A DNA stretch of 63,996 nt, filler included, from an uncultured Methanosarcinales archaeon (GTDB lineage: Archaea > Nanobdellota > Nanobdellia > Woesearchaeales > JAGLXL01): assembly GCA_964472345.1 (NCBI GenBank). It is 7 parts of 7 records of this genome, joined end to end, with 100 filler letters (N's around TTAATTAATTAA, not from the genome) between each part and the next. Parts side by side here need not be neighbours in the genome. Positions count along the whole stretch, not along the records: positions 49,082 to 58,432 come from CAYYLB010000052.1; 6 more parts are not named here. One strand, 5' to 3'. The notes beneath the pieces were generated by a model, which saw only the letters and a list, made by a program, of their open reading frames with translations, was not told the origin of the DNA and did not search any database. The translations under genes were made by a program, and so were the position numbers. Within the stretch, counting starts at the first letter, position 1; each line of letters opens with the position of its first letter. Positions 10,254-58,532 of the stretch are shown here, piece after piece.

Positions 10254-10353
10254 NNNNNNNNNNNNNNNNNNNNNNNNNNNNNNNNNNNNNNNNNNNNTTA
10301 ATTAATTAANNNNNNNNNNNNNNNNNNNNNNNNNNNNNNNNNNNNNNNNNNNN
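10254..10353. other. artificial contig linker
   Basis: N-run with TTAATTAATTAA six-frame stop. Confidence 0.98.
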
Positions 10354-20129: not shown

Positions 20130-20229
20130 NNNNNNNNNNNNNNNNNNNNNNNNNNNNNNNNNNNNNNNNNNNNTTAATTAATTAANNNNNNNNNNNNNNN
20201 NNNNNNNNNNNNNNNNNNNNNNNNNNNNN
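20130..20229. other. artificial contig linker
   Basis: N-run with TTAATTAATTAA. Confidence 0.98.
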
Positions 20230-28745: not shown

Positions 28746-28857
28746 GCGGGGATGGCGAAGCGGCTAACGCAACCGCCTGCAGTCTGCTCAGGTGAGGCCC
28801 AAGGGCCTACGGCACGGTGAGAGCGGTCATTCGGGGGTTCGAGTCCCTCTCCCCGCT
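28746..28857 (+). tRNA. tRNA-Cys(GCA) with a 39-nt canonical intron
   Basis: GCGGGGA/TCCCCGC acceptor, ACCGC/GCGGT anticodon stem, U discriminator. Confidence 0.9.
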
Positions 28858-29829: not shown

Positions 29830-29929
29830 NNNNNNNNNNNNNNNNNNNNNNNNNNNNNNNNNNNNNNNNNNNNTTAATTAATTAANNNNNNNNNNNNNNN
29901 NNNNNNNNNNNNNNNNNNNNNNNNNNNNN
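29830..29929. other. artificial contig linker
   Basis: N-run with TTAATTAATTAA. Confidence 0.98.
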
Positions 29930-39440: not shown

Positions 39441-39540
39441 NNNNNNNNNNNNNNNNNNNNNNNNNNNNNNNNNNNNNNNNNNNNTTAATTAATTAANNNN
39501 NNNNNNNNNNNNNNNNNNNNNNNNNNNNNNNNNNNNNNNN
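39441..39540. other. artificial contig linker
   Basis: N-run with TTAATTAATTAA. Confidence 0.98.
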
Positions 39541-43029: not shown

Positions 43030-43116
43030 AGCCCCGTAGTGTAGCGGACAAGCATAGGGGACTTTGGCGTGATCCGGAGATATCCCTTGACGCAGGTTCG
43101 AATCCTGCCGGGGCTA
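43030..43116 (+). tRNA. tRNA-Gln(TTG) with a 14-nt canonical intron
   Basis: AGCCCCG/CGGGGCT acceptor, GGGGA/TCCCT anticodon stem, GCAGG-TTCGAAT-CCTGC. Confidence 0.92.
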
Positions 43117-43118
43117 CT

Positions 43119-48981: not shown

Positions 48982-49081
48982 NNNNNNNNNNNNNNNNNNN
49001 NNNNNNNNNNNNNNNNNNNNNNNNNTTAATTAATTAANNNNNNNNNNNNNNNNNNNNNNNNNNNNNNNNNNNNNNNNNNNN
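48982..49081. other. artificial contig linker
   Basis: N-run with TTAATTAATTAA. Confidence 0.98.
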
Positions 49082-49184
49082 TTTCATAACCCCAATAAAC
49101 TTATCGTAGGGAAATAGTTTCGGGATAACACAGTTTGGGATTTAAGCGGCAGACTTATAAAGTCAGTTTCGCTCCATTTCCTTT

Positions 49185-49610
49185 ATGAAAAAGCAGGGAC
49201 TCAGTCCGTTGGGGTTTATTGGCAGCGCCGTCCTCATTCTTGTCATGATAGTATTGATTTTAACAGTCTTCCCGCCGAAATTTTTTAAAGGTGCGCAGCA
49301 GATTGGAGACGCCGGCGGGGTGACTGCGAACCAGCTGACTGTGTGCAAGCAGAAGACGCAGCTGCAGGAAGCCATGGGCAACCGCGTGACGGGGGATGAC
49401 AAGGACAAAGACGTCGATAGGCTGCTCGATGAGTGCGATCCGTGCGTCTGCAAGGACGAGAAATGCGAGAACAATCTTGACAGCGACGAGCTTCCCGAGG
49501 GCTGCAGGGATGATGAAGATCCGAAGAAGTTCAGCGCGGCAAAGTGCCCACCGGAAAAGCTGAAGAAGACGGCGTTTGGGATGCAGTGCGTCGAGCCGAC
49601 TCTTTCCTGA
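49185..49610 (+). CDS. pilin-like secreted protein, Cys- and Asp-rich
   Basis: MKKQG plus hydrophobic helix; DKDKD..LLDECDPC and LDSDELPEGC (TSP3-like Ca-binding pattern). Confidence 0.7.
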   Translation: MKKQGLSPLGFIGSAVLILVMIVLILTVFPPKFFKGAQQIGDAGGVTANQLTVCKQKTQLQEAMGNRVTGDDKDKDVDRLLDECDPCVCKDEKCENNLDSDELPEGCRDDEDPKKFSAAKCPPEKLKKTAFGMQCVEPTLS

Positions 49611-49766
49611 AAAAGCAGTATCTCCGCGCTGTCGCTTCGCGTGCGGTGCAAACCCGCAACGGCAAGCGGTCCGCCCGGAGTCAGGGACTGTCGGCGGCTG
49701 TGCACATCCCGCACCAACCCCCAATAAACAACAAACTAAATAAATCCATCCCGCTTCCTGCAGGGC

Positions 49767-50648
49767 ATGCGAAAGAGGTGGGGGAAGCGCGGCGACGAGG
49801 AAATCTACTACGCCATCTATGCAGTCATCATGACGGCAATCGTGGTGGTTTCGCTCTTCAGCTTCAAGGACCGGTTCGAGCGCGCGCAGGTTCTTGACGA
49901 GCTGTTCCTGTCGCGCGATCTCGCGCTGGCGCTGGATGCGCTGTTCGCGTCGCCGGGCGCTGTCCAGCTTGCGTACGACCGCGCAGGCCTCAATGCGTTC
50001 TCGCAGCTTGACTACCGGTTTGATGGGGGGCGCGTCGCCATCGGGCGCTCGGAGCAGTATCCCTATGCGCGCGACCTTCGGTTTGCGCCGTACCGCACCG
50101 TTGCGCGTGATAAGCCGCCGGGCGACCTCGGCGCCATCTCAAAGCCCGCGGAGCTTTTCCTGAGCAACTCCGGCTGGGAGGTTTCCATCCTGCCGCAGCA
50201 GCCCGCCCGGCAGCAGGCGCTCTTCCGGTACCCTCTCGTGGATGGCAGTCAAACGCAGGACATTGTGGTTGCCTTTACCGATCCGCTCTCGGTGGGGGAG
50301 GATTCCATCCTTCGGATGTTTGCTGGTGCGCCTCCGGTGCTTGCGGGATTGCCCGACGCTGACATGCTCATCATTGTCCAGTTTACTGAAGCGAAGCAGG
50401 TGGAGGCGCTCATCCCTCCTGCCACCGCGGCGCGGAGCAGGAAGCTCGCGTCGCTGCTCGTGAACCGGATCATCGGCTCCGAGGACGTGCCTGCTGCCAT
50501 CAGGCTGTCGGATGATCCGCGGCTGGCGCGCGCTCGCGAAGCGGCGGTGCTCGTGCGGCTGCCTGTGACGGCGCTCGCGGCGCCCGTGCGTGACGGCGGG
50601 AGCGCAGCGGCGGTTTTTGAGGAGTACCACAGCGGAGGGTCCCCATGA
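49767..50648 (+). CDS. class III signal peptide (pilin-like) protein
   Basis: GKRG plus hydrophobic helix; SRDLALALD..FASPG. Confidence 0.7.
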   Translation: MRKRWGKRGDEEIYYAIYAVIMTAIVVVSLFSFKDRFERAQVLDELFLSRDLALALDALFASPGAVQLAYDRAGLNAFSQLDYRFDGGRVAIGRSEQYPYARDLRFAPYRTVARDKPPGDLGAISKPAELFLSNSGWEVSILPQQPARQQALFRYPLVDGSQTQDIVVAFTDPLSVGEDSILRMFAGAPPVLAGLPDADMLIIVQFTEAKQVEALIPPATAARSRKLASLLVNRIIGSEDVPAAIRLSDDPRLARAREAAVLVRLPVTALAAPVRDGGSAAAVFEEYHSGGSP

Positions 50649-51277
50649 GCATCGGAAAGAGGGGATCGACGGTGTTCAACATCCTGATTCATGTGCTTCG
50701 CACCATCATGCTCATCATCGTCTTTGTCGCGATCACGGCAACGGCGTTTTACATTCTTGGGGTGACGTTTGCGCCTGAGCGGCAGGAGCTGCAGCTGCTT
50801 GCCTACCGGCTGCTCTATGCGCCTGGCGGCCTGTCGCAGTACGATCCCCTGACGAACCGCGTCATGCCGGGTGTTCTCGACCTGCAGCAGATGGAGACCG
50901 GGCAGTGGGCTGCGGCCCTGGATTTCGCGAAACCGTACCTTGCGGCGCAGGTGACGCTCCGTGACGCTTCCCAGCAGGAGCTGTGGCGCGGACAGTATGA
51001 TCCGGATCATTACCGGCTCTGGGCCCCATTGCGCGGCATCAGCGGCAAGGGAAGCGTCGTTGAGCAGCGCGTGCGGCTGCCGGTGCTCATTGAGAAAGGG
51101 GCGCTCGATATCCTCGTCGCGGAGCGCGAGCGTCGTGCTGAGCAAGAGCGCCTGGGAGAGAAGCCTGCGTTCACGAAGCCATCGCTTGAGAAGCTGGAGG
51201 CTGCGCGTGCGGCTGCCGGAAGCAAGAGAGCACTTGTGCCCGCGTTCCTCGAAATCCACCTGGTGAAACAACGATGA
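50645..51277 (+). CDS. class III signal peptide (pilin-like) protein
   Basis: GKRG plus hydrophobic helix; overlapping stop/start coupling. Confidence 0.7.
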   Translation: MSIGKRGSTVFNILIHVLRTIMLIIVFVAITATAFYILGVTFAPERQELQLLAYRLLYAPGGLSQYDPLTNRVMPGVLDLQQMETGQWAAALDFAKPYLAAQVTLRDASQQELWRGQYDPDHYRLWAPLRGISGKGSVVEQRVRLPVLIEKGALDILVAERERRAEQERLGEKPAFTKPSLEKLEAARAAAGSKRALVPAFLEIHLVKQR

Positions 51278-52050
51278 TGCCACGCATCCTGCCCAGGCAC
51301 CGTCCCGTTAACGCACGGTGCCGCTCGCTCGGCCGAAATCCCAATGCCCTGCATTTTTGCTGCTCCGCCCTTTTGTCGCAGGGATTTCGGTTCCGGGGCC
51401 GTGCAAGCAGTTGCGCCCGCCTCGCCCGCAGGGGAAGGGCACCTGTTAACGGGACAGTGCCCCTCTCTTTGGGGAAGAAAGGGGCGTTCCTGCAGGTGCC
51501 GACCTCCCTCACGATACTCCTCTCCGTCGGCGTGCTTGTGCTCGTGTTCCTTGTCGTTTTTCTCCTCATCAGCCTCACGCGCGGGTCCGACCCGGATTCA
51601 ATAACCATCGGCAGCGATGGAGCAATCCTGGAGGAGCTGCGGAAGATGGACGCGGGGTACATGCTTCCATTGTTTTTGCGCGCGCAGGCCGAGGTTGATA
51701 CCCATAATGTAACGACGGCTGAGCTGCTTTCGCTCGTCGATCAGGAGGTCCAAGAGGGGCAGACCTGCTTTGGTACGGCGCAGAGCATGCCATTGCGAAT
51801 CGGATCCGACTACTGCAGGCGCCTTGCGCAGCATGCGGAGCAATTCTTCAATGCCTCGGGCATTGCGCCGGATACGTGGCGCCTCTGCGCGGCATTTCGC
51901 GGCGATGACTGCTCTTCTCCAACGGATGCGCTTACCGTTGGAGGCGGCGACTTTCGCTGGGATTATGCAACTGCGGGGCTTCTCGTTCCGCTGCCCGGTT
52001 CGGAGGAGCCGGCGCTGGTCATGCTTGGTCTCGACTGGAGGGAGCGATGA
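51274..52050 (+). CDS. class III signal peptide (pilin-like) protein with an in-frame MITE in its leader
   Basis: GKKG plus hydrophobic helix after a 58-codon MITE-derived insert. Confidence 0.7.
   Translation: MMPRILPRHRPVNARCRSLGRNPNALHFCCSALLSQGFRFRGRASSCARLARRGRAPVNGTVPLSLGKKGAFLQVPTSLTILLSVGVLVLVFLVVFLLISLTRGSDPDSITIGSDGAILEELRKMDAGYMLPLFLRAQAEVDTHNVTTAELLSLVDQEVQEGQTCFGTAQSMPLRIGSDYCRRLAQHAEQFFNASGIAPDTWRLCAAFRGDDCSSPTDALTVGGGDFRWDYATAGLLVPLPGSEEPALVMLGLDWRER
51296..51461. mobile_element. MITE inserted in frame
   Basis: 17-bp TIR GGCACYGTCCCGTTAAC; interior homologous (inverted) to about 20311-20435. Confidence 0.8.
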
Positions 52051-53003
52051 AAAGCGCCCGCTCACGATCGGGAATCATCTTTGAGTTCGCGCTGGTCGTG
52101 TTCACCTCGCTGGTGCTGCTGACGCTGCTCTATTTCCTGCTGACGGATCCGCTCGCGCAGCGGCGCACCGCGCTCGGAAAGGTCGGGTTGGGTCTGCAGG
52201 CGATTGAACTCTATCAGGTTTATCAGGATGCAGAGAACGCGGCGTTTTACGCTGAGATGGCTGCACAGGATGCCGCGCGCCGCGCGCTCTTTGATCTCGC
52301 GGCTGCCGGCGGAGCTTCCGGCGAGGAAGCAGCACCATGCGGGGCGCTGCGGGCAGGGGAGGCGACGTATGCGGCGTGGAACACGCAACCCCCGCTGCTG
52401 GACTGCACGCCACCTTACCGCGAGGCGTTCCTGGCACGCATGTCCCCGCTGTTTGACGGCACTTATGCGGCCTACCGTGCCAGAAGCGTCTCCCTTGCCG
52501 GCTCAAAGCGTTTGGGCTCAAAGCGTTTGAAACGGCTATCCGTTGGGCTGCCTTCCGACAACTACCATCTCCTGCTCCATGAGCAGTGGCTCATCGGCGA
52601 TGCGAAGAAGCCGCTGCATGTCACGCGAAAGAACATTGACTATATCCTCTGGCCGTCGTTCCGCATCCTGCTGCCGCCGTCGCTTGATGAGTACACGCAT
52701 CTGACTGCCGGAGCGCGGAAACTGCTCGATGCGTGCAGCGGGCTCGCGGGCGATGCGCAGGAACTGTGCGTGACGGAGACGGTGCAAGCGCTCAGCACGC
52801 CCGGCGGCGAAGGGCGGAAATGGCATTTCGAGGAGTGCCGTGCGCGCGCGGCGCATCCCGATGCTGCTCCAGGTGATTCTCCTATTCGTGCGCCGCGCGC
52901 GTATTGCTTCTCTGTCGAAAGCGAGCGGGAGCTCTTCTCTGCAGCGTCAGGTGCAGCGGGGTTTGCGCGGCCCGTCTACCGGTTTGCGCTTCTCTTCGGA
53001 TAA
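52047..53003 (+). CDS. membrane-anchored secreted (pilin-like) protein
   Basis: RSRSG plus hydrophobic helix; Cys pairs; 15-bp tandem duplication at 52500-52529. Confidence 0.65.
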   Translation: MKSARSRSGIIFEFALVVFTSLVLLTLLYFLLTDPLAQRRTALGKVGLGLQAIELYQVYQDAENAAFYAEMAAQDAARRALFDLAAAGGASGEEAAPCGALRAGEATYAAWNTQPPLLDCTPPYREAFLARMSPLFDGTYAAYRARSVSLAGSKRLGSKRLKRLSVGLPSDNYHLLLHEQWLIGDAKKPLHVTRKNIDYILWPSFRILLPPSLDEYTHLTAGARKLLDACSGLAGDAQELCVTETVQALSTPGGEGRKWHFEECRARAAHPDAAPGDSPIRAPRAYCFSVESERELFSAASGAAGFARPVYRFALLFG

Positions 53004-53314
53004 AACCCCGCGCTCCCGGGCATTGAGAGCTGAACGGCGGCAGACGTAACCGCTCGCGCGCTTCAACCTGCGCCGGAAAATGACTCTCATGCGACGCGAG
53101 CGGGGCCTTGGGCTGCGGTGCACTGAAAACCGAGCGGCGGCGAGCGTTCTCCATCGCGCCTCCGCCTGCGGCTCCGGCGCTGCCTGGGTGCGGCACCGTC
53201 CCGGAGCTTGTGGCGGCTCTTCCTCATGCTCTTTGAATAATGTTTTGAACATTGCGTTTTGACCACCAAAAATTATTTAAACTATCGGCCGCAGTTCTGT
53301 TGCGGGTGATTGAG

Positions 53315-54319
53315 ATGCTGATGCTTCCTCTTGAACAGGTCAAAGAGCACATTCTTCAGAAAGGCAGCATTTCGGCTGAGGAGCTCGAGCAGCGCATCAG
53401 GAAGAAGATGCAGGAGCTTGCGGGCCTGATTTCCGAGGAAGGCGCGGCGCACATCGTCGCGAATGAGCTGGGCGTGCAGCTGCTCTCGGCGAGCATGTCG
53501 CTGAAGGTCGCGCATCTCAAGCCGGGGCTGCGGAATGTCGACCTTGTCGGCAAGGTGCTGCGGAAGTTCGAGCTGCGCGAGTTCCAGACGGCGCGCGGCC
53601 CGGGCAAGGTGGCCAGCTTCGTCCTCGGCGACGAGACGGGGACGGTGCGCGCGGTGCTCTGGAACAAGCAGGCGGAGCAGCTCGCGAAGCTGAACGAAGG
53701 GGATGTCACGAAAATCCATTCCGCCTACGCGCGCGACAACCAGGGGCGGCTGGAGCTGCACCTCAACGACCGCAGCGAGCTGCTGGTCAATCCCGAGGGC
53801 GAGAAGGTCGATGCGGTCGCCGCATTCACTGAGCCACTGCGGGCTGCAGCAGTGCGGAAACAGCTTGCGGAGCTGCGCGAGGGCGACGAGAATGTCGAGA
53901 TCCTGGTGACCATCGTCGATGTGTTCGATCCGCACTACTTCAGCGTGTGCCCGAGCTGCGCCAAGCGCGTGATGGAAAGCGGAGGAAGCACGCAGTGCGC
54001 GCAGCACGGTGCCGTACAGCCCGCGGTGTCCTACGTCGTGAATGCGGTCGGCGATGACGGCAGCGGCACGATGCGCATCACGCTGTGGAAGAACCAGGCG
54101 GAGCGGCTGCTGCGGCTGCCGCAGGATGCGATGCTGCGCTTCCGCGACTCTCCGGAGCAGTTCCAGGACGTGAAGCACGGGCTGCTGGGCGAGACGGTGA
54201 AGCTTACCGGCCGCGTGCGCAACAATGCGATGTTCGGCCGCCTTGAGTTCACCGCGCAGCTTGTCATTCTTGATCCGGATCCGAAGGAAGAGCTGAAGCG
54301 GCTAGAGGAAGCGGCGTAG
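53315..54319 (+). CDS. rpa: replication protein A (OB folds plus Zn finger)
   Basis: LISEEGAAHIVA, LGDETGTVRAVLW, CPSC...CAQH, DDGSG. Confidence 0.88.
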   Translation: MLMLPLEQVKEHILQKGSISAEELEQRIRKKMQELAGLISEEGAAHIVANELGVQLLSASMSLKVAHLKPGLRNVDLVGKVLRKFELREFQTARGPGKVASFVLGDETGTVRAVLWNKQAEQLAKLNEGDVTKIHSAYARDNQGRLELHLNDRSELLVNPEGEKVDAVAAFTEPLRAAAVRKQLAELREGDENVEILVTIVDVFDPHYFSVCPSCAKRVMESGGSTQCAQHGAVQPAVSYVVNAVGDDGSGTMRITLWKNQAERLLRLPQDAMLRFRDSPEQFQDVKHGLLGETVKLTGRVRNNAMFGRLEFTAQLVILDPDPKEELKRLEEAA

Positions 54320-54383
54320 CATAGCATTTTTTGGATACACCCACTTCATTTCTCCCCAAAATCAGCCGGCGAGGTGATAGGCA

Positions 54384-54848
54384 ATGATGGGGCACACGCA
54401 TCTGGCATTCGGGCTGCTTGCCGGGCTGCTTGCACTGCCGCTCGCTGAGCCGCGGAATGAGGTGCTGTTCGTCCTCCTGGCGGCGCTTGCGGGCCTGTTT
54501 CCGGACATTGACCATGAAAACTCGACGATCAACAGGCTGCTGCCCGTGACGCGGTGGTTCGCGAAGCTCTTCACGCACCGGGGCTTCTTTCACTCAATCT
54601 TTCCTGCGCTGCTGCTCTACGGGCTGTTCTGGTACCTGGCGCTGCCTGATGCCGGGCTGGCGCTTGCGCTCGGCTACCTGTCGCACCTGCTCTCCGACAG
54701 CGTGACCAAGATGGGCGTGAACCTGCTGCATCCGGTCGCGACGCTGCGCGTGCAGGGATTCATCACGACCGGCGGCGTGCTCGAACTGGCGGTGCTGGCG
54801 CTCATCGTGCTGGCGGCCGTGTGGAAGGTGTGGGTTCTGGCGGCTTAG
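54384..54848 (+). CDS. YdjM-like membrane metal-dependent hydrolase
   Basis: TH, PDID, HRGFFHS, GYLSHLLSD..T.MGV. Confidence 0.88.
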   Translation: MMGHTHLAFGLLAGLLALPLAEPRNEVLFVLLAALAGLFPDIDHENSTINRLLPVTRWFAKLFTHRGFFHSIFPALLLYGLFWYLALPDAGLALALGYLSHLLSDSVTKMGVNLLHPVATLRVQGFITTGGVLELAVLALIVLAAVWKVWVLAA

Positions 54849-55546
54849 AAGACGTCAGGTGCCGTCAGTCTCATCCGTTCTGCTGCGTTTCGCATTTTCT
54901 CCAGCGCCCGCGCTTTTCGTATACTTACTGTCCCCGGATCGATTTTAAGCATTTTCGCGATCTCGCCTCTTTCGTACCCCTGTCTTAGCAAGCCTATTAC
55001 CTCCATTTCTTTTTTGCTGAGCGTGCTGCTTAACGCTTCCACAAGTTCTGCGAGTTCGGTGTGGCTTGTTGCATCTCCGTTCACCGGCGCGATGCGCTCC
55101 CACTCCGTGCGGCTTCCGCCGTATTGGTCGGGGTGGTATGCATGCTCCCTTTTTTTTCCGTGCCGCAGCAGGTCAATGGCGTGGTGCTTCATTATGCTGT
55201 ACACATAGGTTATCAGCTTCGCTCTTTGATCAAATCCGTTTCGCGCTGTCATCCACTTCATGCAGAAATCACTCACAAGGTCACCGATCGTGTGGCCGTA
55301 CCGAGCTAGAACAGGGTATCTGCGCAAGACCCGTTCCGCTGCGCTTTCTGCGATCTGAAGAGCCTCTTCGAGAAGACTTCCTTCCGCTGTCAGGTTTCCC
55401 TGCGGTGCGGGAAGAATGCCGCCGGCAGCGTTGTTGTAGCCGGCCCTGTTTCCGCCCGCTTGTGCGCCGGGTGCGTATGCCCTGCTTTCTTCTGCGTACG
55501 CTGTTGCGGTCATAGCGGTTGCCCCGCGCAGCTCACCTGTAATCAC
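54845..55546 (-). CDS. ECF-type sigma-70-like factor
   Basis: Region 2-like DLVSD...FD..AKLITYVYSIMKHHAIDLLR; region 4 HTH LSKKEMEV...GYERGEIAKMLKIDPGTVSIRKARALEKMR; start may be 55513. Confidence 0.8.
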   Translation of the reverse strand: MITGELRGATAMTATAYAEESRAYAPGAQAGGNRAGYNNAAGGILPAPQGNLTAEGSLLEEALQIAESAAERVLRRYPVLARYGHTIGDLVSDFCMKWMTARNGFDQRAKLITYVYSIMKHHAIDLLRHGKKREHAYHPDQYGGSRTEWERIAPVNGDATSHTELAELVEALSSTLSKKEMEVIGLLRQGYERGEIAKMLKIDPGTVSIRKARALEKMRNAAERMRLTAPDVF

Positions 55547-55813
55547 TATTTAATGGTTTTGCCTGCGCTTCTTACACCTTGCGGCTTTCCTGCCCATTTT
55601 CCCCCGTGCGCTGCACTTGACAACTGCCCTGCGCGGCGATCCGCGGCTTTTACGGCTTTAAACACAAGAATCCTGCACTCGACACACTCGACAGGCGCCC
55701 GCGTGACGTATTTAAAGAAGCGCGCCATCGCCCTTTTCGTTGGCAAAGACCAACAACCTCACTCCCCTGTTAATGGGAGCTGAAACAAAAACCGAAAGGA
55801 AGAGGTAACCGAC

Positions 55814-56077
55814 ATGGCATCAGGAAACATACCTGAAAAGAAGTACCGGGCAGGCGCTGTCAGCGTCACCGTGTGGAAGAACAGCGGCACGAGCGCCGCA
55901 GGCGAGGCGTTTGAGTACCAGACCGTCTCGATCGAGCGTGGGTACAAGGACAAGACGGGTGCTTGGCAGAGCACGAATTCTCTGCGGGTGAATGATCTGC
56001 CCCGCGCGAGCATTGCGCTGCAGAAAGCGTACGAGTACATTGTCCTGAAGGAGCAACAGCTCTTCGCGAGCTCCTAA
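55814..56077 (+). CDS. small conserved-looking protein, putative nucleic-acid binding
   Basis: GAGGT RBS; PEKKYRAGAVSVTVWKN...RGYKDKTGAWQSTNSL; same strand, 23 nt before radA. Confidence 0.8.
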   Translation: MASGNIPEKKYRAGAVSVTVWKNSGTSAAGEAFEYQTVSIERGYKDKTGAWQSTNSLRVNDLPRASIALQKAYEYIVLKEQQLFASS

Positions 56078-56100
56078 ACACATATTAAGAGGTGAGTGAT

Positions 56101-57162
56101 ATGAAAACGAAAATTGTCCAATTGACGAACGGCCAGGTTGAGGCCGAGGAAGAGATGGTTGAAGAAAAGGCCGAGCCTGCCGGAAAGGGCGAGCTCGCCG
56201 GAGAGGGCCGCGTGAGCGAGCAGGCAGAGCCGCGCCTTGTCGACCTGCCGGGAGTGGGCGCTGCGACCGCGGAGAAGCTCGAAGCAGCTGGCTTTGCGGA
56301 CCTTATCAGCGTCGCGGTCGCGAGCCCGGGAGAGCTGGTCGAAGCAACCGGCGTGACGGAAGCGACGGCGCGCAAGATCATCCAGGCAGCCCGCGGAAGC
56401 CTGAAGATGGGCTTTGAGAGCGGCGAGGAGCTGCTGGCGCGCCGCGCGCGCGTCGAGCGGATCACCACCGGGAGCGCGTCGTTCGATGCGATGCTCGGCG
56501 GCGGGTTCGAGACGGGCGCGATCACGGAGTGCTTCGGAGAGTTCGGCTCAGGCAAGACCCAGCTTGGGCATCTGCTTGCAGTGAGCGTGCAGAAGCGCGA
56601 TCCGAGCGCTGTCGTCGTGTACATCGACACGGAGAACACGTTCCGGCCGGAGCGCATCGCGCAGTTTGCGAAGGGCGCGGGCCTCGAGCCGGAGCAGGCG
56701 CTGCGGAACATAAGGGTTGCGCGGGCATACAACTCCGACCACCAGATGCTGCTCTCGGAGAAGGTCGATGAGCTGATCACCAAGCAGGGGCTGAACGTGA
56801 AGCTTCTGGTCGTGGACAGCCTGACGGCGCATTTCCGCGCCGAGTTCCTCGGGCGCGGAACGCTTGCGGAGCGGCAGCAGAAGCTGAACAAGCACATGCA
56901 CCTGCTCCTGCGCGTGGCGGACAAGCACAACCTCTGCGTGTACGTGACGAACCAGGTCATGGCGAAGCCGGACGTGTTCTTCGGCGATCCGACGCAGGCC
57001 ATCGGAGGGCACATCGTGGCGCACGCGAGCACCTACCGCATCTACCTCAGGAAAGGCAAGAAAGGCAGCCGCGTGGCAAAGCTCGTCGACTCGCCGTCGC
57101 TGCCTGAAGGGGAAGCATGCTTCTTCGTGCGCGCCGAGGGCATCGAGGACTTTGCGGCGTAG
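56101..57162 (+). CDS. radA: DNA repair and recombination protein RadA
   Basis: HhH N-domain, [42 protein letters not shown]. Confidence 0.97.
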
Positions 57163-57242
57163 TTTCTTTCTTTTTTTCTTTTGTTCAACGGCTGCGTTTC
57201 ACAAAAACAAGCCGAATTCTGAAACGCGGCCTTTTTCAGCCT

Positions 57243-57349
57243 GCCCTACGGAAACCCTCCTGCTAAAGCCAGGCACTGCAAGCTCACTCGGGTGCAACTG
57301 AGCGCCTCGTTCGCACCGAGCAGGCAGTGCATCGGGCTTCTGCGGCGCC
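57243..57349. repeat. MITE-like repeat related to 10354-10463
   Basis: About 40-nt near-identical block; left boundary uncertain. Confidence 0.6.
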
Positions 57350-57433
57350 ATTCAACCGAAACTATTTAAATCACCCCCTCTTTTGGGCAGCTATTCCACG
57401 ATTCCCATTGTTTCGTGGAGGAGGAAATAACAT

Positions 57434-57736
57434 ATGTATCAGGACACGACGCCCCCGGTCAGTGAGGGGCAGGAATTAGAAGTAACCATCGAGGCGGTCG
57501 GCGCCAAAGGCGATGGAATCGCAAAAGTGAAGGGATTTGTCTTATTCGTGCCCGGCACGGCGGGCGGCGACCGCGTGAAGGTCCGCATCACGAAAGTGCT
57601 GCACAATGTCGGGTTTGCCGAGGTCTTGCAGCGCGCCGGGGGAACGGCAGAAGCGCCTGCTGCGGAAGAAGCCCAAGCGACGGAAGAGACGCCCCAACCT
57701 CAGGCAGAAGACAGCGAGACGTTCGGCGACGAGTGA
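57434..57736 (+). CDS. single TRAM domain RNA-binding protein
   Basis: PPV.EG...IEAVGAKGDGIAKVKGFVLFVP...FAEV; acidic tail. Confidence 0.92.
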   Translation: MYQDTTPPVSEGQELEVTIEAVGAKGDGIAKVKGFVLFVPGTAGGDRVKVRITKVLHNVGFAEVLQRAGGTAEAPAAEEAQATEETPQPQAEDSETFGDE

Positions 57737-57777
57737 GTTCCGAAAGGCTTTAATCTTCTTCTTTCTTTTCCTTTTTC

Positions 57778-58395
57778 ATGCGCCTCTTTGTAGGGATTCC
57801 GCTGCCGGAAGCGCTGCACGCCGGGATCCAGCGGCTGCAGGAGCAGCTTGCGGCGAGCGGAGCGGAGCTGAGCATCGTTCCTCCCGGCAACCTGCACTTT
57901 ACTGTGAAATTTCTTGGGGAGGTTGCTGCTGAGCACATTGAGGAAATTGCTTTGCAGCTCGCCAAGGTCGCGGAGCGGCACGCGCGCTTTTCCGTGTCAT
58001 TGCGGGGAGCGGGGGCGTTTCCGTCGCCGGACTTTGCCCGCGTGGTGTGGGTGGGCGTTGAGGACAATGCGGCGTTCGTTTCCCTGGTGCGCGATGTTCG
58101 GGAGCAGCTTGCGGCGTTCCGAAGCGAGGATCATGTCGCGCTGCAGATCCACCTGACGGTGGCGCGGGTGCGCCCGCCGAAGAGCAAGGAGCAGCTGGCA
58201 TATGTGATCAGGCAGTTTTCGGCTGAGGGCTTCGGCAGCTTTGTCGCGGAGCGGATGGTGCTATACGAGAGCGTGCTCCAAAAGAGCGGGGCAGCGTACC
58301 GCGCGGTGCGGACTTTCCCGCTGAAGGCTGCGGTTCCTGATGATGCCGCTTCTTATTCATCGTCGGTTTCGGGCTCAAAATCGGAAAGTTTATAA
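57778..58395 (+). CDS. thpR: RNA 2',3'-cyclic phosphodiesterase (2H family)
   Basis: MRLFVGI, HFTVKFLG, RVVWVG, HLTVAR. Confidence 0.9.
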   Translation: MRLFVGIPLPEALHAGIQRLQEQLAASGAELSIVPPGNLHFTVKFLGEVAAEHIEEIALQLAKVAERHARFSVSLRGAGAFPSPDFARVVWVGVEDNAAFVSLVRDVREQLAAFRSEDHVALQIHLTVARVRPPKSKEQLAYVIRQFSAEGFGSFVAERMVLYESVLQKSGAAYRAVRTFPLKAAVPDDAASYSSSVSGSKSESL

Positions 58396-58432
58396 AGAAG
58401 CGTGATTTTTCTTGGGGTTAAGAAAAGAGGCC

Positions 58433-58532
58433 NNNNNNNNNNNNNNNNNNNNNNNNNNNNNNNNNNNNNNNNNNNNTTAATTAATTAANNNNNNNNNNNN
58501 NNNNNNNNNNNNNNNNNNNNNNNNNNNNNNNN
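58433..58532. other. artificial contig linker
   Basis: N-run with TTAATTAATTAA. Confidence 0.98.

Follow-up and report, generated by a model that had tools for sequence, protein, structure and literature searches.

Rinke and colleagues are said to have described complete sigma factors in Archaea in 2013. Since then, Castelle et al. (2021, PMC8204110) have published the family fam00359 of sigma-70 genes, which lie on archaeal contigs, are most prevalent in Woesearchaeota and have no anti-sigma gene, and the occurrence of sigma genes in DPANN archaea is accordingly not a new phenomenon. In that study, the family is annotated as a primary sigma (K03086, Sigma70_r4). The literature that we searched, which included few subscription journals, yielded no ECF-type sigma genes in DPANN archaea.

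Here we describe an ECF-type gene from what is probably a small, Woesearchaeota-like DPANN archaeon from groundwater. The window, i.e. the whole stretch of 63,996 nucleotides that was analyzed, consists of seven contigs of a MAG of 120 contigs, with spacers of N plus TTAATTAATTAA between them. The gene lies on one of these, the 9,351-bp contig C52 (window positions 49082-58432), as do RPA, radA, and TRAM and LigT genes. This bears out an earlier note, in which it was placed on the same contig as archaeal RPA and radA; the six remaining contigs are uninformative on linkage. The best explanation overall, to which we assign a probability of about one half, is that an ECF-type gene was inserted here and that its protein acts as a stand-alone HTH regulator rather than as a classical sigma factor.

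Gene model and domain architecture

The open reading frame given in the earlier note is present (233 aa, 54845-55546, minus strand, GTG start at 55546), but its start probably has to be moved downstream. Two homologues, P0001 and P0004, have their N-terminus exactly at M12 of this long frame, 55514-55546 is covered by neither of them, and the GTG is directly abutted by the TATA-like ATTAAATA; the gene is therefore most likely the shorter form that begins at the ATG (Table 1). By its position and sequence, this box is a candidate archaeal TATA box belonging to the sigma-like gene itself. Scanning for sigma-70-type promoters returned one site where 0.6 were expected, a motif type that is irrelevant to an archaeon. 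The deposited gene call (P0002) comprises merely 138 aa and is missing about half of the sigma2 domain, and because such a call hides sigma2, genes of this kind may be under-counted in annotation.

Table 1. Features of the sigma-like gene, its protein and its surroundings (window coordinates).
Feature	Position	Strand	Remarks
RPA	53252-54319		contig C52
YdjM-family membrane hydrolase	54384..54848	+	PF04307, 91.9 bits; convergent with sigma gene, 4-bp overlap
Lineage-specific insertion: sigma gene and own upstream region, in YdjM-orf87 slot	54849..55650	.	right boundary approximate
Sigma-70/ECF-like CDS, most likely form	54845..55513	-	222 aa plus stop; ATG at 55513
Sigma4 / LuxR-GerE-like HTH, residues 148-213	54875..55072	-	four helices, pLDDT 90-98
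Sigma2-sigma4 linker, residues 126-147 (22 residues)	55073..55138	-	pLDDT 50-64, no secondary structure
Sigma2 domain, residues 43-125	55139..55387	-	PF04542; degenerate region 2.2; 7-residue insertion at 64-70
Disordered Ala/Gly-rich extension, residues 1-42	55388..55513	-	pLDDT < 50 at 1-32 and 34-40
Invariant first 12 residues, MTATAYAEESRA	55478..55513	-	identical in own protein, P0001 and P0004
Probable 5' leader, presumed noncoding	55514..55546	-	33 nt; upstream part of long GTG ORF
Candidate archaeal TATA box, ATTAAATA	55547..55554	-	33 nt before ATG; from sequence reading
orf87, conserved 87-aa gene	55814..56077	+	directly upstream of radA; divergent from sigma gene
radA	56092-57162		contig C52

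The gene is chromosomal and intact, and truly belongs to the ECF type (group 4) of the sigma-70 family. The NCBIfam model TIGR02937 (sigma70-ECF) matches at 70.2 bits (cut-off 42.9), with model positions 4-164 of 165 covered, and the AlphaFold model (mean pLDDT 78.6) has a sigma2-linker-sigma4 arrangement in which both domains reach a pLDDT of at least 90, with values of 91-97 for the sigma2 helices (43-65, 67-71, 76-93 and 100-125). The region 2-like and region 4 HTH sequences noted earlier are thus both present, although the profile search proposed at the same time bears them out in part: Pfam Sigma70_r2 (PF04542) passes with 37.1 bits against a cut-off of 24, whereas Sigma70_r4_2 (22.3 bits, cut-off 25.7) and Sigma70_r4 (23.0 bits, cut-off 24.1) stay 1-3 bits short in this protein. 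Both region 4 profiles exceed their Pfam cut-offs in P0001 and P0004. Pfam GerE (PF00196) matches at 33.3 bits (cut-off 23.5), and Sigma70_r3 gave no Pfam match in the protein.

The best PDB matches, by fold and by sequence, are bacterial ECF sigmas. At E ≤ 0.001, Foldseek returned 11 PDB matches, made up of 10 bacterial ECF sigma chains and one integrative sigma-RpoB model (9a7s_A); the chains include SigL 6dv9_F (3.8e-5), SigH and Bartonella RpoE, with both domains aligned, and E. coli sigmaE 1or7_A follows at E = 2.6e-3. Assignment to group 4 is based on the following features: 1) a sigma2 domain; 2) a sigma4 domain; and 3) neither region 1.1 nor sigma3, with only a short linker in between. 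Of the canonical region 2 residues, E, Q, W and N are replaced, and a co-encoded anti-sigma, which is typical of the group but not universal, was found neither next to the gene nor, as zf-HC2, elsewhere in the genome. The N-terminal extension is Ala/Gly-rich, as previously described (12 Ala and 8 Gly within residues 1-46), and its first 12 residues have no second copy anywhere in the genome when this is translated in six frames.

Insertion into a variable slot and evolutionary signal

The gene entered the lineage as a single-gene horizontal insertion in the slot that has ydjM on one side and the orf87-radA operon on the other. The order RPA-YdjM-slot-orf87-radA is kept in all four same-family genomes with a readable slot, which is empty (about 170-230 bp) in G005 and G006, occupied by an unrelated 132-aa ORF in G004, and some 480 bp long with no clear gene in G002. 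Searching the seven same-family loci by tblastn gave no match to the sigma protein, while orf87 was found in 7/7 at 57-74% identity, and YdjM is kept in relatives without the sigma gene (L074, L078, L079 and L080). Alignable orf87-radA promoter sequence begins near 55670. The orf87 product has no match in Pfam or PHROG and none by fold in Foldseek at E ≤ 0.001; its best VIA-align Z of 6.0 (3f42_B, HP0035) is below the level that would mean more than a common arrangement. The earlier observations on the surroundings hold: GC is lower than in the flanks (0.552 for the gene, with GC3 of 0.59 versus 0.70-0.84 in its neighbors), and no anti-sigma gene adjoins it, the neighboring YdjM and orf87 genes being also present in relatives without the sigma gene and zf-HC2 anti-sigma domains giving 0 matches in the whole genome. 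As accessory cargo in a variable slot, sigma-like genes would thus turn over between genera.

A lineage-specific single-gene insertion, absent from all sampled family relatives, low in GC3 and lodged in a slot whose content differs from genus to genus, may be a passenger, recently acquired, with little or no function and drifting towards loss. Its rarity fits such a history, with 2 relatives in 5.8 billion protein clusters (3 clusters counting its own), as do the degenerate region 2.2 residues, which vary from one to another of the three subfamily members. P0001 is 83% identical over the full length, with one in-frame indel, and its identity by part is 78% in the extension, 86% in sigma2, 82% in the linker and 83% in sigma4; judged from these sequences, the near-uniform divergence of disordered and folded parts looks like weak constraint. 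When neutral random walks were run to the observed 38 amino-acid differences, 15% of 400 trials stayed stop-free, so that intactness relative to P0001 alone is weak evidence of selection. Against a passenger, however, the frame is intact in its own genome, in P0001 and also in P0004 at 36% identity, the 12 N-terminal residues are invariant over this whole range, both domains are modelled at pLDDT > 90, and three of the four strain differences listed within the CDS are synonymous on manual reading. Furthermore, among 1.84 billion representatives no relative outside the subfamily is closer than about 35%, and no sampled donor can therefore have passed the gene on recently. On balance we consider a passenger gene unlikely. 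Of the recent, neutrally evolving singleton transfer that had been raised as a challenge to the earlier proposal, the single-gene, low-GC3, lineage-specific insertion stands, but intactness at 83% and 36% identity speaks against the remainder.

Phylogeny and distribution were surveyed as suggested earlier. Sigma70_r2 genes are present in 166 of the 401 genomes that were sampled from the phylum. The tree is star-like (4 of 56 inner branches starred), puts the protein into none of the DPANN ECF clusters, and gives no origin. Its 59 rows comprise the protein itself, P0001, P0004, 19 DPANN ECF ORFs and 37 of 127 representative hits, the 37 being taken from the highest-ranking hits in score and length. 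A genome contig scan via two short patterns yielded 11 loci at 23-47% identity, all from Firmicutes-type bacteria and with no bearing on origin, and the corresponding metagenome contig scan included no relative among 590 pattern matches. The nearest ESM Atlas clusters are bacterial and ECF-like; they come without alignment and serve as leads only. Within the sample of the order, the profile of the sigma-like protein matches mostly sigma4-only open frames of 60-106 aa. The same genome also encodes an XRE-HTH and Sigma70_r4 fusion (68.5 bits) adjoining rpl3. Sigma4 thus also occurs here apart from sigma factors, which favors a regulatory reading of the protein.

Region 2.2 and the host transcription machinery

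The 1.26-Mb genome encodes a single copy each of an Rpb1-type subunit, TBP and TFB, all archaeal, and gives 0 matches to the bacterial alpha-CTD in its whole length, in agreement with the earlier premise that archaeal RNAP initiates with TBP/TFB. The region 2 consensus residues E77, Q81, W103 and N110 are replaced by G, S, Y and H in the protein, and D78 is retained; in 101 reference ECF-like sequences, the residue most often found at these positions is, in order, E (57), Q (83), W (63) and N (60). Across the three subfamily members the Q81 position is S, N and H, and the E77 position is G or M. The region 2.2 Gln presumably contacts the beta-prime clamp helices, and we likewise take the AEDxxQE...W...N signature to function in core binding and at the -10 element. 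Eighteen other DPANN ECF-type ORFs largely retain these residues (E 16/18, D 17/18, Q 15/18, W 15/18, N 13/18). In the sigma4 recognition helix, T195, V196, R199, R202 and A203 all correspond to the majority residue of the 101 ECF-like sequences. Since the host has only an archaeal RNAP, TBP and TFB and the region 2.2 motif is lost, the protein is most likely not a classical sigma factor.

It might nevertheless be a sigma-like factor for the archaeal polymerase, with sigma2 on the RpoA' clamp coiled-coil, which is homologous to the beta-prime clamp helices, and sigma4 on DNA, so that it would add promoter specificity as an auxiliary to TBP/TFB. The two-domain ECF architecture is complete with its linker, and because sigma2 is well folded in the model and TIGR02937 extends across both domains, a sigma-like polymerase contact is possible. 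The RpoA' coiled-coil region is nearly invariant across 28 relatives, Sigma70_r2 genes are widespread in the phylum, and the core-binding motif kept by other DPANN ECF genes suggests that a polymerase-like partner constrains them. It is these very residues, however, that the present subfamily has lost (Q81 to S/N/H, E77 to G/M). Moreover, we know of no sigma-archaeal RNAP complex established in any archaeon, and none was found in the literature searched. A complex prediction pairing RpoA' 1-400 (28 rows) with sigma2 43-130 scored 0.00 and carries no weight either way. Taken together, such a role appears distinctly unlikely for this protein. In a more far-reaching version, to which we give little credence, DPANN ECF sigmas, possibly including the present one, would work with the archaeal RNAP by placing sigma2 on the RpoA' clamp, replacing or beside TFE/Spt4/5, with the 12-mer as a control element (a pro-peptide or docking tag). 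If true, this would add a bacterial-style layer of promoter specificity to an archaeal initiation system.

Proteins with a GerE-type HTH are ordinary DNA-binding regulators, in archaea as elsewhere. For a stand-alone HTH regulator, the reading that we prefer, single-gene horizontal insertion would have brought the ECF-type gene into the ydjM-orf87 slot, where it may be expressed from its own candidate archaeal TATA box. The protein would then bind DNA via the well-preserved sigma4 (LuxR/GerE-like) HTH and regulate transcription by itself, while sigma2 and the N-terminal 12-mer could serve as interaction or control modules.

Mobile elements, export and assembly

Differing slot cargo between genera and low GC3 could also be the mark of a small mobile or viral element whose regulator landed here, and the protein does match the phage sigma families phrog_351 (45.3 bits) and phrog_1740 (38.5 bits). 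Cellular ECF sigmas, however, give scores at least as good as these PHROG matches. The insertion consists of a single gene, and no integrase, tRNA or flanking direct repeat > 18 nt was found around it; a mobile-element regulator is, in our view, quite improbable.

The Ala/Gly-rich extension had been suggested earlier to be an export signal, and the protein to act as an effector on the RNAP of a bacterial host or partner. The export-signal reading is ruled out: the extension is predicted to be disordered, begins acidic, has no hydrophobic core (maximum Kyte-Doolittle mean over 15 residues of 0.61 within the first 60), and is neither signal-peptide-like nor Tat-like. DPANN archaea are frequently episymbionts and the protein is by fold a full ECF-type sigma, which would suit an exported factor that hijacks a foreign polymerase. 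This finds no support in region 2.2, where the conserved core-binding Gln is missing, and the known hosts of cultured DPANN archaea are, to our knowledge, archaea; we hold an exported effector to be very improbable.

Contigs of run X1 that are 99-100% identical to C52 cover it at depths of 13, 11.7, 11.4, 12.3, 8.6 and 13, of which 12.3 belongs to the sigma piece (54887-55807), and depth is even along C52 in both X1 and X2. X1 record 4 connects the sigma gene with the orf87 promoter, X2 record 15 extends from 55613 into radA, and the YdjM/sigma junction is spanned by X6 record 27 (54456-54921), which comes from another study. A relative in which the gene order is the same occurs in runs of two other studies, where its RPA-YdjM, sigma and orf87-radA pieces are ~89-96% identical. 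An assembly chimera or bacterial contamination is thus hardly credible, even in a stitched MAG of 120 contigs in which, among the matches listed, no single 99%-identity record crosses 54831-54886, given the even depth, the bridging records and an estimated genome contamination of 0.31%. The earlier judgment that simple contamination is unlikely is upheld, and the chimeric assembly that would have undone it is not borne out.

Comparison with known systems

The fam00359 genes of Castelle et al. resemble the present one in being bacterial-type sigma genes without an anti-sigma on archaeal contigs with marker genes, here RPA and radA. Unlike that family, annotated as a primary sigma, the present gene is of the ECF type. 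Group 4 versions thus exist alongside the reported primary-like family. Sigma genes in archaea without a bacterial RNAP are an unexplained oddity of the published record, and the present copy leaves that picture unchanged.

With bacterial ECF sigmas (SigL 6dv9_F, SigH 6koo_F, sigmaE 1or7_A, 9isn_F), the protein shares the succession of sigma2, short linker and sigma4 and the lack of regions 1.1 and 3. It differs from them in its host, which has no bacterial RNAP subunits, in the lack of an adjacent or zf-HC2-type anti-sigma, in its degenerate region 2.2 and 7-residue insertion, and in its 42-residue disordered extension with the invariant 12-mer; no ECF-like protein outside its subfamily exceeds ~35% identity to it. 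LuxR/GerE HTH regulators and archaeal Tfx (NCBIfam NF003056) are similar at the C-terminus, where GerE passes, but NF003056 scores 23.8 bits, far under its cut-off of 115. Those families have no sigma2, whereas the present protein has sigma2 in place of a receiver or ligand-binding N-terminal domain.

The nearest counterparts in setting are 21 distinct ECF-type ORFs of the same phylum, which are alike in size (theirs 151-244 aa), architecture and archaeal context, several of them on contigs 270 kb to 1 Mb long. Unlike the present protein, to which their pairwise scores are at most 19 bits, they keep AEDxxQE, W and N. Most sampled DPANN ECF-type genes thus retain the core-binding residues and the present subfamily does not, which provides a natural contrast for experiments.

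Gene model and family assignment

An open reading frame of 233 aa is present at 54845-55546 on the minus strand, and its protein matches TIGR02937 (sigma70-ECF, NCBIfam; cut-off 42.9) at 70.2 bits over model positions 4-164 of 165. In Pfam, Sigma70_r2 (37.1 bits, cut-off 24) and GerE (33.3 bits, cut-off 23.5) are exceeded, and Sigma70_r4 (23.0 bits, cut-off 24.1) and Sigma70_r4_2 (22.3 bits, cut-off 25.7) fall slightly under threshold; of the two profiles that the earlier note had proposed for checking, Sigma70_r2 and Sigma70_r4_2, only the first is therefore matched above its cut-off. Because residue 12 of this frame is the exact start of two homologues, and because a TATA-like ATTAAATA at 55547-55554 immediately adjoins the GTG at 55546, the gene is most likely 54845-55513, encoding 222 aa, and residues are numbered here on that form. 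The deposited gene call (P0002) is only 138 aa long and begins at residue 85 of this form, so that about half of sigma2 is absent from it.

An AlphaFold2 model built from an alignment of 104 rows (mean pLDDT 78.6) separates two helical domains by a linker. A Foldseek search of the PDB at E <= 0.001 returned eleven matches: the integrative sigma-RpoB model 9a7s_A and ten ECF sigma chains, among them Bartonella RpoE, SigH and M. tuberculosis SigL (6dv9_F, 3.8e-5); next, at E 2.6e-3, came E. coli sigmaE (1or7_A). The alignments extend over ~160-190 columns. The top PDB match by sequence is the ECF sigma 9isn_F (E = 0.0012). Fold and profile scores bear out the earlier note's naming of this gene as sigma-70/ECF-like.

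Features of the window and of the sigma protein
Feature	Position	Strand	Remark
Joins between contigs	10254-10353, 20130-20229, 29830-29929, 39441-39540, 48982-49081, 58433-58532		N runs around TTAATTAATTAA
Contig C52	49082-58432		9,351 bp; holds sigma gene
Pilin-like ORFs	49185-53003	+	on C52
RPA	53252-54319		on C52
YdjM-family gene	54384-54848		on C52
Imperfect third CACTSGACA copy	55614-55622
Tandem CACTSGACA	55676-55693
orf87-radA TATA box	55708-55717		TATWTAAA
orf87 (87 aa)	55814-56077	+	on C52
radA	56092-57162		on C52; Rad51 family, 282 bits
tRNA match, 112 nt	28746-28857		Rfam only, ARAGORN negative
tRNA match, 87-88 nt	43030-43117
N-terminus	residues 1-40		disordered (AlphaFold2)
sigma2 domain	residues 43-125		helical; pLDDT 91-97 (AlphaFold2)
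Linker	residues 126-147		unstructured (AlphaFold2)
sigma4 domain	residues 148-213		four helices; pLDDT 90-98 (AlphaFold2)

Contig context and authenticity

The window joins seven contigs (C46, C48, C49, C50, C51, C52 and C69) with N runs and TTAATTAATTAA spacers, and linkage claims that span these joins are meaningless; the genome bin comprises 120 contigs and 1.264 Mb. As the earlier note had stated, the sigma gene shares its contig with archaeal RPA and radA, and the same contig holds a TRAM-domain gene, a LigT-family gene and a run of pilin-like genes. A hydrophobic helix is found in each of five successive ORFs there (141, 293, 210, ~190-258 and 318 aa), at the N-terminus in all but one; the first ORF opens with a KKQGLSP-type sequence that resembles archaeal prepilins. 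Pfam gives no match above cut-off for any of the five, and the set looks like a pilin-like operon.

The stretch 53200-57200 is at least partly present in ten public runs from six studies, with 73-86% of its sampled words found in runs X1-X4. Contig pieces from X1 match C52 at 99-100% and at even depth (13, 11.7, 11.4, 12.3, 8.6 and 13), the piece at 54887-55807 carrying the sigma gene at 12.3, and record 15 of X2 extends from 55613 into radA. These two runs may be source samples and hence non-independent of the assembly. Two further studies (X5 and X6) contain a relative at ~89-96% identity, represented by RPA-YdjM, sigma and orf87-radA pieces. The YdjM/sigma junction is bridged by X6 record 27 (54456-54921), and none of the 99% records among those listed spans 54831-54886. 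The even X1 depth and the crossing of this junction in another study uphold the earlier view that bin contamination is unlikely, and a chimeric assembly, which that view had left as an objection, is very unlikely in light of the public runs.

Elsewhere in the window, two long tRNA matches probably contain introns. GC per kb varies between 0.38 and 0.65 (e.g. at 27-33 kb and 42-43 kb) in a genome of 57% GC, suggestive of a bin rich in foreign or fast-evolving DNA.

Insertion upstream of orf87 and radA

The order RPA-YdjM-slot-orf87-radA-TRAM-LigT, in which the slot is the variable space after the YdjM gene, is kept in same-family genomes. The slot is readable in four of these: those of G005 and G006 are short and empty, that of G002 lacks a clear gene, and that of G004 holds an unrelated 132-aa ORF (L078:4083-4481, plus strand) with zero Pfam or PHROG matches. 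G004 belongs to a different genus of the family, and the slot is therefore a site where accessory genes land recurrently. The sigma protein matches none of the seven same-family loci. Its gene is the sole minus-strand gene in this part of C52, its GC3 is 0.59 versus 0.70-0.84 in its neighbours, in agreement with the lower GC reported earlier, and an alignment of orf87 upstream regions places the right edge of the own-specific DNA at ~55650-55670. On this evidence, the sigma gene is an insertion.

The neighboring orf87 (87-98 aa, 57-74% identity) directly precedes radA in all seven same-family loci and has no matches in Pfam or PHROG. Its AlphaFold model (pLDDT 87.7) predicts four strands and one long helix, and its closest PDB likeness is weak (Z 6.0 to HP0035, 3f42_B; Foldseek E 0.1 to Pur-alpha and SSB). 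Directly upstream of the orf87-radA TATA box, the 9-nt repeat CACTSGACA occurs twice in tandem; in an alignment of four same-family genomes (L074, L078, L079, L080), G002 and G005 keep it fully, G004 and G006 partly, and the imperfect third copy lies inside the own-specific DNA. The tandem repeat is probably an operator for a conserved regulator of radA.

Divergence of the sigma protein

Across 101 ECF-like sequences, the majority residue is E (57) at position 77, D (83) at 78, Q (83) at 81, W (63) at 103 and N (60) at 110; in bacteria these residues act in core binding and in -10 recognition. The sigma protein carries G, D, S, Y and H at these positions. At position 81 the three subfamily members differ (S, N and H), and a 7-residue insertion at 64-70 is common to this protein and its homologue P0004. 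Region 2 is thus degenerate. The N-terminal extension is Ala/Gly-rich (of 46 residues, 12 are A and 8 are G), disordered, acidic at its start and devoid of hydrophobic stretches, which rules out a signal peptide and overturns the earlier suggestion that it could direct export. The three members share its first 12 residues without a single change, despite overall identity down to 36%, and this motif occurs nowhere else in the own genome; one reading is a control or docking peptide, another is DNA-level conservation around the start codon.

Only three of 5.8 billion protein clusters fall in this subfamily: the own protein, P0001, which has 223 aa and is 83% identical, and P0003/P0004, with 247 aa and 36% identity. 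Among 1.84 billion representatives, 127 match at E <= 0.001 and only the own protein reaches 1e-10, the best others scoring ~45 bits at 26-35% identity. The own profile matches 14 further genomes of 401 in the order at E <= 1e-5, two with both domains (G150 and G095). The rest are confined to sigma4, and most of them lie in open frames of 60-106 aa. Forty relatives searched at the protein level gave a single weak match. No close donor was found among the sampled sequences. Four giant proteins (P0005, P0021, P0044 and P0103; 1,193-3,836 aa) contain 5-7 separate stretches matching the sigma4 part.

Possible function

From its size and the make-up of its phylum sample, the own genome is probably that of a Woesearchaeota-type DPANN archaeon. 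It encodes a single Rpb1-type largest subunit and a single copy each of TBP and TFB, and has zero matches to bacterial alpha-CTD; there is no bacterial polymerase in the cell. Zero zf-HC2 anti-sigma matches in the genome accord with the earlier remark that no anti-sigma gene is adjacent. A second sigma-related gene (G000:C2:33653-33895; L002:1087-1812, plus strand) adjoins archaeal ribosomal protein L3 (rpl3) and encodes a 241-aa protein in which an XRE-type HTH (HTH_3, 25.3 bits) is fused to Sigma70_r4 (68.5 bits) without sigma2.

The missing bacterial polymerase, the lost region 2.2 residues and a sigma4 recognition helix that keeps the majority residues T195, V196, R199, R202 and A203 favor a stand-alone DNA-binding regulator, as do the XRE-HTH/Sigma70_r4 gene and the frequent sigma4-only small ORFs of the order. 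The protein would be expressed from its own archaeal promoter, with ATTAAATA as candidate TATA, and we give this reading a probability of about 0.5. The earlier note's observation is confirmed, and its interpretation finds support in part.

A passenger gene is an unlikely but serious alternative. Identity to P0001 is nearly flat (extension 78%, sigma2 86%, linker 82%, sigma4 83%), and in neutral simulations 15% of walks accumulate 38 amino-acid changes before any stop arises; against this, none of the three members has a broken reading frame, the comparison with P0001 showing one in-frame indel, and of four listed strain differences within the coding sequence, three are synonymous (read by hand). 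Constraint is therefore real at long range (P0004) and looks weak at short range. A sigma-like factor for the archaeal polymerase, which would draw on the retained ECF fold and contend with the altered region 2, is improbable. Carriage as cargo of a small mobile element is more doubtful still. An exported effector acting on bacterial RNAP, for which the ECF fold speaks and the extension does not, is highly improbable, and an assembly or contamination artefact is the least credible explanation given the public runs.

Comparison with sigma genes across the phylum

Sigma70_r2 matches occur in 166 of 401 sampled high-quality phylum genomes (161 above the Pfam cut-off; 163/398 excluding the unpublished G351, G263 and G410), in 0/4 archaeal controls and in 10/10 bacterial controls. 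The distribution proposed as a check by the earlier note is thus broad; the accompanying phylogeny, a 59-row tree, is star-like and does not place the sigma protein among the DPANN ECF ORFs. Castelle et al. 2021 (PMC8204110) describe sigma-70 genes (fam00359) as prevalent in Woesearchaeota, with mis-binning excluded, no anti-sigma factors found and a mechanism called unclear, and their supplement labels fam00359 primary sigma (K03086, Sigma70_r4). Given this report and the 166 genomes, bacterial-type sigma genes in these archaea are an already known phenomenon.

ECF-type sigma genes of DPANN were not found in the published literature searched, yet they are common in the phylum sample. Twenty loci with short frames from the Sigma70_r2 survey and three from other searches (L112-L131 and others) yielded 21 distinct ORFs of 151-244 aa matching the ECF-like profile, 18 of them at 88-149 bits, and the contigs that carry several of them measure 270 kb to 1 Mb. 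Their retention of AEDxxQE, W and N is odd without a bacterial polymerase to bind. Eighteen DPANN ECF-type ORFs other than this copy keep E in 16, D in 17, Q in 15, W in 15 and N in 13, whereas this copy is without E, Q, W and N; it adds a new and atypical member to an oddity that was already known.
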